Of a stretch of 64,000 nt of DNA, positions 18,755 through 25,286 are shown piece after piece. Positions within the stretch are counted from its first letter, which is position 1; each line of letters begins with the position of its first letter. A program made the translations under genes and the position numbers. The notes under the pieces were generated by a model. That model made no database searches. It was not told where the DNA came from and was given only the letters and a program-made list of their open reading frames with translations. Source of the stretch: an uncultured Bacteroidales bacterium (GTDB lineage Bacteria > Bacteroidota > Bacteroidia > Bacteroidales > Bacteroidaceae); assembly GCA_902781515.1 (NCBI GenBank), contig CACZJU010000005.1:28911-92910 (forward strand), in the 5' to 3' direction.

Positions 18755-21010
18755 ATGAATTATCCTTTGATATCAGAATATATAGAAGCCATAAAGGCTG
18801 CAGAAGACAACTTTGAGAAGTTGACTAATCTTCGGCCTGTGCTTACTGATGATGGACAACCTGTGATGACAAGCGGCAACTTTGCAGTGGTTTTCAAGAT
18901 GGAGGACATAGAGACGGGGAAGTTCTATGCTTTAAAGTGTTTTACGAAGGAGCAGGAAGGCCGAAGTGAAGCATATCGCCAAATAGCAGAAGAACTGAAA
19001 GAAGTGAAATCCCCTTATTTGATATCTGTTAAATATATAGAAAAAGAATTGTTCGTGGATACGGGTCAAACTTCAGAAACAGAGTTCCCTGTGTTGCTAA
19101 TGGATTGGGTCGAAGGGAAGACATTAGACAAGTATTTGCGGGAGAATCTTGATGACAAGTATGTCCTTGAAATGTTGGCATATCATTTCAGTCAGTTGGC
19201 TCAATGGTTCATTCCTCAGCCCTTTGCTCATGGAGATTTAAAGCCTGATAACATCCTCGTTCGCGAGGATGGCTCGCTTGCTCTTGTTGATTACGATGGT
19301 ATGTATGTGCCAACCATGAAGGGACAAAAGGCTCGTGAACTTGGTTCTCCTGATTTCCGCCATCCATTACGCACCGAGAATGATTTTGATGAGCATATTG
19401 ATGATTTTCCGCTGGTATCGATACTCCTTTCTTTGAAAGCCATTTCACTTAGTTCAGGTTTGATAGAGGAATATGGTGCCAAAGACAGATTGTTGTTTTC
19501 TTCTAATGATTACAATAATATAAAAGAATGTAAATTTTTGAGAAAACAGATTCCAAGTGGTAATGAGGTTTTGGACAGATATGCTTATCTTTTAAGTGCT
19601 GTTTGTTACAACGTGCAATTACCTTCCACGTTGTATGATCTCATTCCTACATATAGACCATTGCCATTGGTTCCCTATAGAATTAGTGATAATTGTTATT
19701 CTTTGTATGACAAAGTTAATCAGAAACTATTGTCCATGCAATATAAGAACATTGATTTTGTAGATACCTCTTTGGAAAACAGCACGTCATGTGTTCTTAG
19801 TAACGAATACGGTTCATGGGGAATGTTTGGTTATGGTTACAAGAATGCGGCAATTGTTTCAAAGCCTCGTGATATTTTAGACCTCCATTGGTACAAACAG
19901 TTATTGAATATTGGGAAATTGAGGACTCACTTTATAGCCCAGAACTCGTTTGGTAAGTATGGTATTATTGATGATCAAAACAATGTTCTTCTGAATTTTA
20001 TCTATCAAGAGATAAAAACCATTGAAGTTGGAGAAGAAGTATATTTAATATGTAAAAAGGGAAAGTATTATGGAATTCTCAATAAAGAGCTGAAGGTGAA
20101 AATTCCATGCATTCTGTTAGATTTGGTTGGTTATTCTATGCTCAAATTAATTACGTATAAGAGTGAACAAGGCTTATCTTTCGCTATGGATTTGACCACT
20201 TTAAATGAATGCCAATTACCGGATGATTATAATAGGATTGATGATTATAAAGAAGGAATTCTCACATTTGAGATTGCGAAAGAACAATATAGATTTTATA
20301 GTTTTGAAAAAAGTGAATATATAAATATATATACATACCAGAGATTATCAGAGTATAAATCAATGGAAATCCAGAAATCTTTTGTACTGTGCAGAAGAGA
20401 ACAATCACATATTCTTTTAGCTATAGATGGATCAGAATATCCTATCAAGTTCAATGGAGCACTCAGTCAATATGGTGAAATGGTGATTGGTGTGACTCCA
20501 ATTGAAGAGAAATATATAGGACAATATGGATTTGAGCGTACACGAACTAATTATGAAGTGTTAGTTTTCAAGAAAAACATTCTGTTGTCCAAATTTGTCT
20601 ACAATGAGAGTCCTGGCTATCATAAAACCTTTGAGTTAGTGAGTGAGGATACAATTTGGGTGGGCCAATGGGGAAAATATGGAAAAGTTGGAACGCATAT
20701 AAATTTGAAGGGAGAACATCTTTCTTGGCCTAAATCAGAGAATTGCACAAATAACAAAAAAGTTAAAGAAAAGAACTCTCGACTTATTAAGATAGTAAAA
20801 GAGAAATATCTGAATTCGACATTCATTAGTAATTTTGACTGTTTTGAAGTCGACGAGTTTAATTTTTTCAATATAAGCACATTGGAAAATCTTGCCTTTG
20901 TTTGTTTCCACTGGGATGCAGGTGACGATGAAGGGCATGGTGGAACTATAGAAATCGGTTATGCTGATGAAGATATGTGTTATTGGTCAAAAGACTGCTT
21001 AAAAAAATAA
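18755..21010 (+). CDS. Ser/Thr protein kinase (Hanks-type, N-terminal) fused to C-terminal WG repeats
   Basis: Kinase motifs: SGNFAVVFKM; YALKCF (beta3 Lys, AAG 18935-18937); HGDLKPDNIL (19229-19252 covers HGDLKPDN); VDYDG (DFG equivalent); GSPDFRHP (APE-like). The C-terminal ~450 aa has WG-type repeats, e.g. FGKYGIIDDQNNVLLNFIYQEI and GKYYGILNKELKVKIPC. Confidence 0.85.
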   Translation: MNYPLISEYIEAIKAAEDNFEKLTNLRPVLTDDGQPVMTSGNFAVVFKMEDIETGKFYALKCFTKEQEGRSEAYRQIAEELKEVKSPYLISVKYIEKELFVDTGQTSETEFPVLLMDWVEGKTLDKYLRENLDDKYVLEMLAYHFSQLAQWFIPQPFAHGDLKPDNILVREDGSLALVDYDGMYVPTMKGQKARELGSPDFRHPLRTENDFDEHIDDFPLVSILLSLKAISLSSGLIEEYGAKDRLLFSSNDYNNIKECKFLRKQIPSGNEVLDRYAYLLSAVCYNVQLPSTLYDLIPTYRPLPLVPYRISDNCYSLYDKVNQKLLSMQYKNIDFVDTSLENSTSCVLSNEYGSWGMFGYGYKNAAIVSKPRDILDLHWYKQLLNIGKLRTHFIAQNSFGKYGIIDDQNNVLLNFIYQEIKTIEVGEEVYLICKKGKYYGILNKELKVKIPCILLDLVGYSMLKLITYKSEQGLSFAMDLTTLNECQLPDDYNRIDDYKEGILTFEIAKEQYRFYSFEKSEYINIYTYQRLSEYKSMEIQKSFVLCRREQSHILLAIDGSEYPIKFNGALSQYGEMVIGVTPIEEKYIGQYGFERTRTNYEVLVFKKNILLSKFVYNESPGYHKTFELVSEDTIWVGQWGKYGKVGTHINLKGEHLSWPKSENCTNNKKVKEKNSRLIKIVKEKYLNSTFISNFDCFEVDEFNFFNISTLENLAFVCFHWDAGDDEGHGGTIEIGYADEDMCYWSKDCLKK

Positions 21011-21014
21011 AGAG

Positions 21015-25000: not shown

Positions 25001-25286
25001 TTTCTTAAGTCAACCGTTTTATAAAGGAGAATGGTATATCACAGCTTTGATGTGGGTCGTATGGTGGTATTCAAATATGGCAATCATTTCTATGCCAAAA
25101 TATCTATTAGAATGGAGAGTAAAACATTTTAAAACCAAAGAAGAAGCTATCGCAGAACAAGTAGAGCAAGAACTTTCAACTATAAGGGCAGAAGTTGAAA
25201 AAGAAGATAAACGACGAGAAAAAGAATTGAAAGAAATGAAAGAAAGACAAAGATGGTATGGTTATTATGATGACTTGCCTTTTTAA
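22098..25286 (+). CDS. Transmembrane receptor-type Ser/Thr kinase: lipoprotein-like signal, extracytoplasmic WG repeats, TM, kinase domain, multi-TM C-terminal region, coiled coil
   Basis: Signal/lipobox-like IMMMASC. Many WG repeats, e.g. DGLYGYIDSVGNRIIEPEF, AKYGYIDKSGEFAIAPKF, GKWGFINRIIKEQIPCKYD. TM is LLYLFVGVVVILLIAICVIW. The kinase domain (about 23780-24540) is about 55-60% identical by eye to the 18755 kinase: SGNFAVVFKM, HGDLKPDNIL (24243-24266 covers HGDLKPDN), VDYDG, GSPDFRNP. Hydrophobic segments follow at nt 24718-25090, then a charged coiled coil. Confidence 0.85.
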   Translation: MKEFRLYIFRLLFIAYSIMMMASCNKNKPFDGYLYPIREDGLYGYIDSVGNRIIEPEFLWVSTFHNGLAIAVVDTIYRIVPDSMAYEVGERDTIINVYRMYAKYGYIDKSGEFAIAPKFVSYVNMNEIGDVTNDMDDCSNALYRHSFRNGRAMFCDTTTWKDGYIDTKGNIAIAPKYYYSGPFSEGLAVVRDAVAEPLYTNKACITPSKLRCAYLDTLGNIVTEFKYESLTRFSSGRGIGTYKKINKETLDIEDTTIVYETYSIPRFLINLEGKEIKELNFNYDYYGFSRNGISVSSDGFFYRSFVGKENISYYFIDVNGDFLEPLKGLSEYQLDSLGKCNDIIQVLPENAKISSATYFNEGFAGITPDKKHWFVIDKYLLIHGYGDESIFDGFRAFNNGLAAVKKNGKWGFINRIIKEQIPCKYDSCGAVYPYLEEVFEYDIQGEVKKKAYINRKDCLVWESPIYNSEKIENRYSIKESKDYGKWTYEYNPLNKHLLYLFVGVVVILLIAICVIWKSVSHKSSKGENIEDLVIQKVQENDVATDVISINVNDIDSNEILLYPTIGQYTEAIKESAKAPDEYFDKLKNLCPVLDDNGEPIMSSGNFAVVFKMKDEYGKQYAVRCFHRAQLGREKNYKLICEELAKVSSPYISPIRYYDKELFIESGEYPVLLMDWVEGMTLDKYIRKVINDKRAINQLATNFKKLAIWLLNQPFAHGDLKPDNILVKNDGSLVLVDYDGIFVPAMQGQTAREMGSPDFRNPSRTEEDFNKDIDNFPIVSILLSLELIAAKSEYLERFGKEDRLLFSHDDYLNLRGSGIFKRALTSYADDIPELAVMLERMVNGEQCNVDNVKKLLLTNNWHERLQPNKEIERKASWFVGGWFILVLFLPLYLRSVICWHIVMLYLTILFLIALMFFIIVFVDRIRPNKKEHIGTIGNEGPAGFFGWINFIPLLLMTDFFTDWLNSNVPFLSQPFYKGEWYITALMWVVWWYSNMAIISMPKYLLEWRVKHFKTKEEAIAEQVEQELSTIRAEVEKEDKRREKELKEMKERQRWYGYYDDLPF

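Follow-up and report, generated by a model that had tools for sequence, protein, structure and literature searches.

We analyzed two protein kinase genes, here called A and B, in a stretch of 64,000 nucleotides from an uncultured Bacteroidales bacterium (GenBank assembly GCA_902781515.1, contig CACZJU010000005.1, positions 28,911 to 92,910 of the forward strand). We refer to this whole stretch as the window, and positions below are counted within it unless a locus is named. Our results make it reasonably probable that the products of both genes are sensor kinases of a composite TerY-P-type conflict system, probably directed against phages, which resides in an island of low guanine-cytosine (GC) content in a Prevotella genome. 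The island spans ~18.7-33.7 kb of the window, with 34-40% GC versus ~50% in the flanks, and every long open reading frame (ORF) in it lies on the + strand. A preliminary description of this DNA had placed A and B exactly where we find them. The pair is not a special duo, however: both belong to a variable array of sensor kinases, which would feed a conserved core that includes a DarT-vWA fusion protein and a PP2C-like phosphatase.

According to passages in two papers (PMC11090510, PMC7699616), the TerY-P triad is made up of a TerY-like vWA (von Willebrand factor A) protein, a PP2C phosphatase and a Ser/Thr kinase, was predicted to form a phosphorylation switch (Anantharaman et al. 2012), and is an anti-phage system active against T7-like phages (Gao et al. 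2020). All three components are found here in one operon and match the TerY-P profiles of PADLOC, in a mobile, island-like locus. The matches to the TerY, PP2C and STK_OB profiles, together with those to DarT, bear out the defence-like setting that had been proposed earlier. The genes for B, DUF6939, DarT-vWA, PP2C and A1S_2505/DUF1810 are all on one strand, and they overlap or are spaced by 2-12 bp. The features of the two kinases and of the core are the following (aa, amino acids; TM, transmembrane):

18755-21010, + strand: kinase A (751 aa), soluble, with a Hanks-type core and a C-terminal all-beta, propeller-like domain
18755-19609, + strand: kinase core of A (aa 1-285), which keeps K61, HGDLKPDN and VDYDG
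19835-20704, + strand: C-terminal all-beta, propeller-like domain of A (~aa 361-650), with one marginal WG repeat at aa 402-438
22098-25286, + strand: kinase B (1062 aa), with lipobox, WG repeats, TM helix 1, kinase, TM block and charged helix
22098-22169, + strand: signal peptide of B with lipobox (MMAS/C24); Cys24 invariant, and n- and h-regions conserved, in 46 orthologues
22170-23567, + strand: WG-repeat module of B (aa 25-490), predicted periplasmic (Pfam WG_beta_rep, E 7.5e-30)
23574-23654, + strand: TM helix 1 of B (~aa 493-519), followed by K/R/H-rich, predicted cytoplasmic residues
23781-24572, + strand: kinase core of B (aa 562-825), with HGDLKPDN and VDYDG intact; Arg623 codon at 23964-23966
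24717-25097, + strand: C-terminal membrane block of B, with a TM hairpin at ~aa 874-923 and weaker helices at ~943-960 and 979-1000
25137-25265, + strand: long charged C-terminal helix of B (aa 1014-1056), a possible coiled coil
25292-25951, + strand: DUF6939 protein (Pfam E 1.2e-74), directly 5' of the DarT-vWA gene in all loci
25954-27408, + strand: DarT-like ADP-ribosyltransferase (ART) fused to a TerY-type vWA domain (DarT aa 26-201, vWA aa 198-478)
27405-28184, + strand: PP2C-like phosphatase, the start of which overlaps the DarT-vWA stop (PADLOC PDLC02222)
28189-29436, + strand: protein with an A1S_2505-type N-terminal domain and DUF1810 (Rv1873-like), the last gene of the conserved core

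The kinase cores of A and B are paralogous, as had been noticed before: A aa 3-280 and B aa 562-837 align along 282 aa at E 2e-97, with 55% of positions identical and 74% positive, and the profile-profile comparison with hhalign matches them at E 4e-104, far beyond chance. The motifs that had been quoted for the pair are present, except that KDRLLFS is exact in A only and reads EDRLLFS in B. Both proteins pass the Pfam Pkinase cutoff of 31.7 bits (A, 53.9; B, 46.4) and match PADLOC STK_OB (PDLC02223; A aa 1-285, E 3.1e-52; B aa 562-824, E 5.7e-53), a match that in both is confined to the kinase half of the profile (positions 1-281 of 562). In A, the catalytic set K61, H159-G-D161-LKPD-N166 and D179-Y-D-G is conserved in 34 orthologues; neither HGDLKPDN, in the catalytic loop, nor DYDG varies among A-type or B-type proteins, and GSPDF is invariant in the B-type. 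In 29 of the 34 A-type orthologues we also observed weak matches to Pfam TCAD9 (best E 0.0019), limited to the region of the catalytic loop (A aa 157-181). TCAD9 is a “ternary complex associated domain” of NTP-dependent conflict systems; the matches probably reflect generic kinase-like similarity.

In the DarT-vWA protein, the DarT domain scores 124.6 bits with Pfam (E 5.7e-36, cutoff 22.5) and matches the PADLOC DarT profile at 1.5e-19. Aligned with the DarT1 chain from E. coli C7 in PDB 8baq, its putative catalytic residue, Glu164 (in QAEVLV), faces the Ala of QAAILV, which we take to be the mutated catalytic Glu. DarT enzymes ADP-ribosylate (single-stranded) DNA. The vWA part (aa 198-478) covers 272 of the 277 positions of the PADLOC TerY profile (PDLC02224, E 8e-53), and its metal ion-dependent adhesion site (MIDAS) motif, DxSxS, reads DQSVS. 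The PP2C-like protein matches its profile at aa 11-210 (E 2.7e-7), with the motifs NEDAA, DGAGGGG, SDAL and DDYT read by eye. From family names and fused-domain context, the DUF6939 protein, the A1S_2505/DUF1810 protein and an ADP-ribosylglycohydrolase encoded at the distal end of the island are candidate ADP-ribose-handling proteins. A resemblance of motifs had suggested that DUF6939 might be a NADAR-like de-ADP-ribosylase, an idea that obtained no Pfam support at E<=10 and none from a PDB profile search.

Putative sensor modules and predicted topology of the two kinases

The layout described earlier for protein B is borne out: a lipobox signal comes first, then WG repeats and one TM helix, and the kinase is followed by several TM segments and, at the C-terminus, by a charged helix. 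The N-terminus, MKEFRLYIFRLLFIAYSIMMMAS followed by C24, has the sequence pattern of an n-region, an h-region and the lipobox MMASC; across the 46 orthologues, at 64-89% identity, position -1 is nearly invariantly Ser or Ala. The WG module (~465 aa) matches WG_beta_rep (PF14903) with 103.1 bits (cutoff 25.6) in four significant stretches, and our own repeat hidden Markov model (HMM) finds five clear repeats; counting degenerate copies, we recognize several more in the region of aa 40-460. TM helix 1 is the strongest hydrophobic segment of the protein (Kyte-Doolittle peak 3.34); its hydrophobicity is kept in orthologues and its sequence is variable, and the K/R/H-rich residues next to it give charges that fit the positive-inside rule.

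Export through Sec and signal peptidase II, and the positive-inside rule, are established bases for reading topology. Since the kinase requires cytoplasmic ATP and a single TM helix follows the exported N-terminus, the WG module of B should face the periplasm and its kinase the cytoplasm. The preliminary description had the WG repeats facing either the periplasm or the cell surface. The periplasmic location agrees with the lipobox, TM helix 1, the charges around it and the colinear relatives described below; exposure at the cell surface is unlikely, as the downstream TM anchor and the lack of acidic residues after the lipobox Cys lead us to expect retention in the inner membrane.

Among B orthologues, mean identity is 78% in the WG module and 80% in the kinase core, while conservation falls to 35-55% in TM helix 1, in the linker, in the TM block after the kinase (55%) and in the tail, which in B itself ends in YYDDLPF. 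A WG module as conserved as the kinase core suggests a conserved ligand more than a fast-evolving phage protein, and B thus more likely monitors a conserved component or state of the envelope, possibly the host's own. That B senses phage adsorption or injection, as proposed earlier, is speculation. The AlphaFold2 (AF2) model of full-length B has a mean pLDDT (predicted local distance difference test score) of 56.7, with the WG half below 50 past residue 320, and is informative for secondary structure only, beta-rich in the WG region. The Foldseek matches of this model were kinases and a single propeller-like protein with seven blades (3s25), at weak E-values.

For protein A, a hydropathy scan found no TM segment and no signal peptide, in agreement with the soluble protein that had been described. 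Its C-terminal part has one sub-threshold match to WG_beta_rep (18.9 bits, cutoff 25.6, E 1.5e-3), whereas 31 of 34 A-type orthologues match at E<=0.1 (best 1.2e-8). The arrangement of a kinase followed by WG repeats is thus supported in part, the C-terminal domain of A being marginally WG by profile. In the AF2 model of A, aa 360-650 are all-beta with pLDDT 80-95, and the best PDB matches in Foldseek are WD40-type propellers (E 2e-9), although TM-scores are low because the rest of the model is poor. We predict a propeller-like fold for this domain of A. Profile comparison with hhalign reported no similarity between the C-terminal domain of A and the WG module of B, matching only the kinase cores; to speak of the same two domains in inverted order, as the preliminary description did, was an overstatement. 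A and B are better described as one kinase head joined to different sensor modules. Our own WG-repeat HMM, used above on B, was overfitted to orthologous positions and brought no gain for A.

The sensor part of B also occurs outside kinases. When all representative proteins were searched by HMMER with aa 25-490 of B (E<=1e-3), 24,320 of them were retrieved; proteins from this search carry P-numbers below. Nearly all of the colinear full-length relatives (30-65% identity) start with a lipobox at residue 20-35, and most of those longer than ~480 aa have a single TM helix at residue 470-530. Some consist of sensor and TM helix only. Five others (P0161 and P0173-P0176; ~1050-1150 aa, 34-65% identity to the cassette) have a large cytoplasmic region where B has its kinase, with weak matches to PD-(D/E)XK or Cas4-like nucleases at its end (Pfam, 5e-5 to 1e-4; PADLOC, 1e-5 to 2e-4), and may be transmembrane sensor-nucleases. 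We found no kinase motif in the colinear relatives. Lipobox, WG module and TM helix thus form a portable extracytoplasmic unit that is joined to different cytoplasmic outputs.

Related loci and the variable kinase array

We found the core of DUF6939, DarT-vWA, PP2C and DUF1810 genes in 24 genome loci and several metagenome loci, ~30 Prevotellaceae loci overall (compared loci are given L-numbers). The genomes are rumen and gut metagenome-assembled genomes of Prevotella and other Prevotellaceae, and the isolate Prevotella sp. P3-122. The core is preceded by one to four paralogous kinases at every locus for which we have the upstream sequence. Thirty of these paralogues are neither A-type nor B-type, and their extra domains include LRR_5 (17), Sel1 (10), LRR_8 (10), TPR, FNIP and FGE-sulfatase; some short kinase paralogues terminate in TM blocks. 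Only B-type proteins have an N-terminal extension. The island is flanked by different housekeeping genes in different genomes, and such differing insertion sites indicate that it is mobile.

The complete genome of Prevotella sp. E9-3 (L032, CP091786) has the same layout as the window, with A, B and the core in this order. Its A-type gene (L032 7359-11308) is interrupted by an inserted DDE_5 transposase gene, which leaves a kinase fragment of 267 aa and a second fragment of 435 aa, the latter labelled “WG repeat-containing protein” by NCBI, and in L013 a kinase is broken into pieces of 69 and 831 aa. From these disrupted copies, array kinase genes appear to decay and turn over. The ADP-ribosylglycohydrolase, an accessory gene in the window, is also present in L013, L027 and L032.

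The C-termini of the kinases fall into several recurrent classes, ending in DDLPF or DLLPF, in [DK]KDKLVEQ, or carrying PNY.NI or WS[KR]DCM (examples at 25266-25286 of the window and at 5813-5833 of L001). These tails may be short linear motifs, though not universal ones: we discarded the idea that a “D-[DL]-LPF” tail, which B and some paralogues have, is a universal docking peptide for vWA or PP2C, given that other tail classes exist and that A lacks it. Outside the kinases, the product of the island ORF at 31063-31713 ends in DDTPPF, and its homologue in L014 ends in DIIPF.

Proposed mechanism, alternatives and known systems

In the mechanism that we propose, the lipoprotein signal of B would export the WG module and anchor it by lipid on the periplasmic face of the inner membrane, and TM helix 1 would couple it to the cytoplasmic kinase, tethered again by the C-terminal TM block. 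Binding of a cue by a sensor module would switch its kinase on, in the cytoplasm for A and the paralogues with LRR or Sel1 repeats, and in the periplasm for B. The kinase would then phosphorylate vWA-DarT, or a partner bound at the MIDAS, and free the DarT activity. DarT would ADP-ribosylate DNA and replication would stop, and PP2C and the candidate ADP-ribose-handling proteins would return the system to rest or shield the cell. The presence of a kinase and a phosphatase next to DarT suggests phospho-control of the toxin, and not control by an antitoxin. A broader version of this scheme, which we regard as doubtful, would make the kinase array a repertoire of germline-encoded pattern-recognition receptors, with LRR, Sel1/TPR and propeller kinases in the cytoplasm and one WG receptor facing the periplasm, all converging on DarT through the vWA phospho-switch; B would signal from the outside inwards as an immune receptor, announcing an envelope event ahead of phage genome entry or regardless of it, and the lipobox-WG-TM cassette, with its Cas4-like fusions in other proteins, would represent a wider class of transmembrane defence sensors.

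Several observations weigh against A and B being sensor kinases of a TerY-P-type system. The kinases are linked to vWA-DarT by synteny alone, and neither has the C-terminal OB (oligonucleotide/oligosaccharide-binding) or zinc-ribbon domain of canonical TerY-P kinases. The PP2C-like protein has no Pfam match and no PDB sequence match, so that its assignment consists of one PADLOC profile and motifs read by eye. No protein of the island matches a Macro or NADAR domain in Pfam, and no macro antitoxin of the DarG type was found by sequence. The topology of B was read from sequence signals, and its poor AF2 model leaves the WG propeller fold unconfirmed. Finally, B has Arg at the beta3 position of the kinase, a classically inactivating substitution.

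This last point concerns how B would work. In the HMMER alignment, R623 (YAVRCF) takes the place of the catalytic beta3 Lys, which in GRK1 lies in YACKKL. Lys-to-Arg at this site is the classical kinase-dead substitution, so kinase activity of B cannot be assumed. Arg occupies the site in ~104 of 109 scorable B-type orthologues (Lys in five), whereas 37 of 39 A-type orthologues have Lys. Two classes of core can be told apart, K-type (YAxKCFTKEQ) and R-type (YAVRCFHRAQ), and every B-type protein counts among the latter, as do some cytoplasmic paralogues, few in number (L018, 682 aa; L019, 1223 aa; L020, 846 aa). B could be a pseudokinase or scaffold, a periplasm-sensing receptor which would phosphorylate no substrate but, in the manner of pseudokinase-kinase pairs, would recruit a soluble K-type paralogue (A, for example) or activate it allosterically, and a K-type kinase does accompany B in the window, in L016 and in L032. 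We consider this unlikely: the HGDLKPDN, VDYDG and GSPDF motifs are all invariant in the B-type, the Lys in five orthologues implies that the site toggles, and in L014 no kinase other than the B-type protein was detected in the 10 kb upstream of the core, which argues that B is self-sufficient.

Alternatively, the kinases could themselves be effectors, aborting infection through broad phosphorylation of host or phage proteins, a role proposed for other defence kinases, with DarT-vWA and the ADP-ribose-handling candidates beside it as a separate, co-located module of the toxin-antitoxin kind. Their cores do match other defence-kinase profiles (mad6 at 8e-17, several PD-T4-6 models and MkoA), and defence genes often cluster in islands. 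We find this improbable nonetheless. Array and core are never apart in the ~30 loci, the tight spacing or overlap of genes on one strand ties them together, and a kinase, a vWA protein and a PP2C are the very trio that defines TerY-P (PMC11090510); moreover, the number of kinases and their sensors vary while the core stays fixed, as expected of inputs converging on one output. That A and B are housekeeping kinases for envelope or cell-wall signalling, of the PknB/PASTA type and unrelated to conflict, we judge highly improbable: B does have the overall build of a receptor kinase, in which a TM helix joins repeats outside the cytoplasm to a kinase of the Hanks type, and weakly matches PknB_PASTA_kin (1.7e-7; 30.7 bits versus a cutoff of 450), but there is no PASTA domain, the genes lie within the low-GC island and are obligately linked to a DarT toxin domain, gene content and insertion sites differ among close relatives, and copies are disrupted by an insertion sequence or by frameshifts.

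Set beside the TerY-P systems that it resembles, the locus of the window, which we interpret as a TerY-P-type system with A and B as its sensor kinases, differs in five respects: its vWA carries an N-terminal DarT-like ART; it has one to four kinases, instead of one; WG/propeller, LRR, Sel1/TPR and TM modules replace the OB fold (Gao-type) or zinc ribbon (CoCoNuT-type) of the kinase; one kinase, B, is a predicted transmembrane receptor; and there are extra genes of ADP-ribose-associated families. DarTG systems share with it the DarT domain, which can be aligned to DarT1 of E. coli C7 and keeps the putative catalytic Glu, and the adjoining candidate ADP-ribose-handling genes; here, however, no macro or NADAR antitoxin (DarG) is detected by sequence, DarT is covalently fused to vWA, and a kinase and a phosphatase are alongside. 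PknB/Stk1 PASTA kinases likewise have a Hanks-type kinase, a single TM helix and extracytoplasmic repeats, but the kinase of PknB is N-terminal, whereas in B the sensor is N-terminal and predicted to be exported as a lipoprotein; B further has WG instead of PASTA repeats, an extra C-terminal TM block, the beta3 Arg and a defence-island context.

Linked trios of kinase, PP2C and stand-alone vWA have also been described in actinobacterial GAP1-N2 GTPase conflict systems (Kaur et al. 2020, PMC7159879). There, too, genes for these three activities are neighbours, and beta-rich domains or TM helices are found fused to the kinases; in contrast, those systems belong to another phylum and have a GTPase partner, absent here, while here the vWA is fused to DarT. 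A conserved signalling head with swappable repeats (LRR, TPR/Sel1, propeller) recalls plant LRR receptor kinases and bacterial Avs/NLR-like sensors by analogy, not homology. The head here is a Hanks-type kinase, presumably acting on a vWA-DarT effector, and no STAND NTPase is involved.

Part of this could have been anticipated from existing resources: a PADLOC-type annotation would flag TerY-P, and databases call B a “WG repeat-containing protein”. In the literature we found no paper on a DarT-vWA fusion and no published mechanism for TerY-P, and a limited search returned nothing relevant on WG-repeat receptor kinases and no functional papers on WG repeats. As far as we found, then, the fusion of DarT to TerY, the array of several kinases with exchangeable repeat sensors, the putative transmembrane WG receptor with a beta3 Arg, and the reuse of the lipobox-WG-TM cassette with predicted nuclease outputs are new. 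With the vWA switch joined to DarT, whose DNA ADP-ribosylation can be assayed, the output of kinase and phosphatase becomes directly testable, and the variable array suggests how many sensors might couple to one effector. B is a candidate periplasmic sensor of bacterial immunity that lends itself to study, and it would open a first way to the function of WG repeats, which are very common. The system is found in rumen and gut Prevotellaceae, where phage-host biology is poorly explored.

Genes between the kinases and around the distal end of the island

Three further features of the island have counterparts at other loci:

21015-21646, + strand: small ART-like gene, frameshifted in the window; follows A-type kinases at other loci
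21830-22087, + strand: conserved 85-aa ORF, immediately 5' of kinase gene B
32907-33731, + strand: ADP-ribosylglycohydrolase (Pfam ADP_ribosyl_GH, 1.9e-35), accessory, at the distal end of the island

The small gene after A is a 174-aa ORF that stops at 21539, whereas its orthologues have 210 aa (L011, L012, L016, L027 and L030-L032). The missing, conserved C-terminal ~36 aa, with SLYKLINHGGENQVTFKRG and KIIYMEEI, can be read in another frame, up to 21646. The orthologues weakly match Pfam ADPrib_exo_Tox (E 0.016 for that of L016) and the C-terminal part of phrog_595 (E 5.8e-8); the small gene may represent a second ART on the island, inactivated in the window. The 85-aa ORF matched no family. 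With tblastn we found it at 53-81% identity directly 5' of kinase genes in L009, L017, L020 and L014, and L030 and L031 have an 85-aa gene at the equivalent position.

Other loci have different genes in such places. Some have a PLD-like gene (PLDc_2, E 1e-24; L003 4861-5688) between two kinases, and in L001 a DUF5677-like gene and a gene for an unassigned 235-aa protein are interleaved between kinases. These small variable genes might encode kinase-specific partners or extra effectors.

Between the conserved core and the ADP-ribosylglycohydrolase gene, the island contains three more ORFs outside the conserved core. The first (29954-30958) has no confident family and a sub-threshold match to WG_beta_rep (E 1.9e-3). 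The second (31063-31713, mentioned above for its tail) has no confident family, and its one homologue is 3' of the core in L014. The third (31728-32891) has an N-terminal hydrophobic segment and no confident family. A search for tRNA genes as island boundaries found none in the window, and a sigma-70 promoter and terminator scan of the island, which does not cover Bacteroidota promoters, gave counts no higher than shuffled controls.

Directly after the island, where GC content is intermediate (44-47%), lies a TerB-DnaJ (DjlA-like) gene at 33869-34645. Ter-family genes are historically tied to TerY; this one may be a mere core-genome neighbour. It is followed, just past the island, by an AAA_14/DUF4143 ATPase gene (34691-35926), from a family that is frequent in mobile or defence settings.

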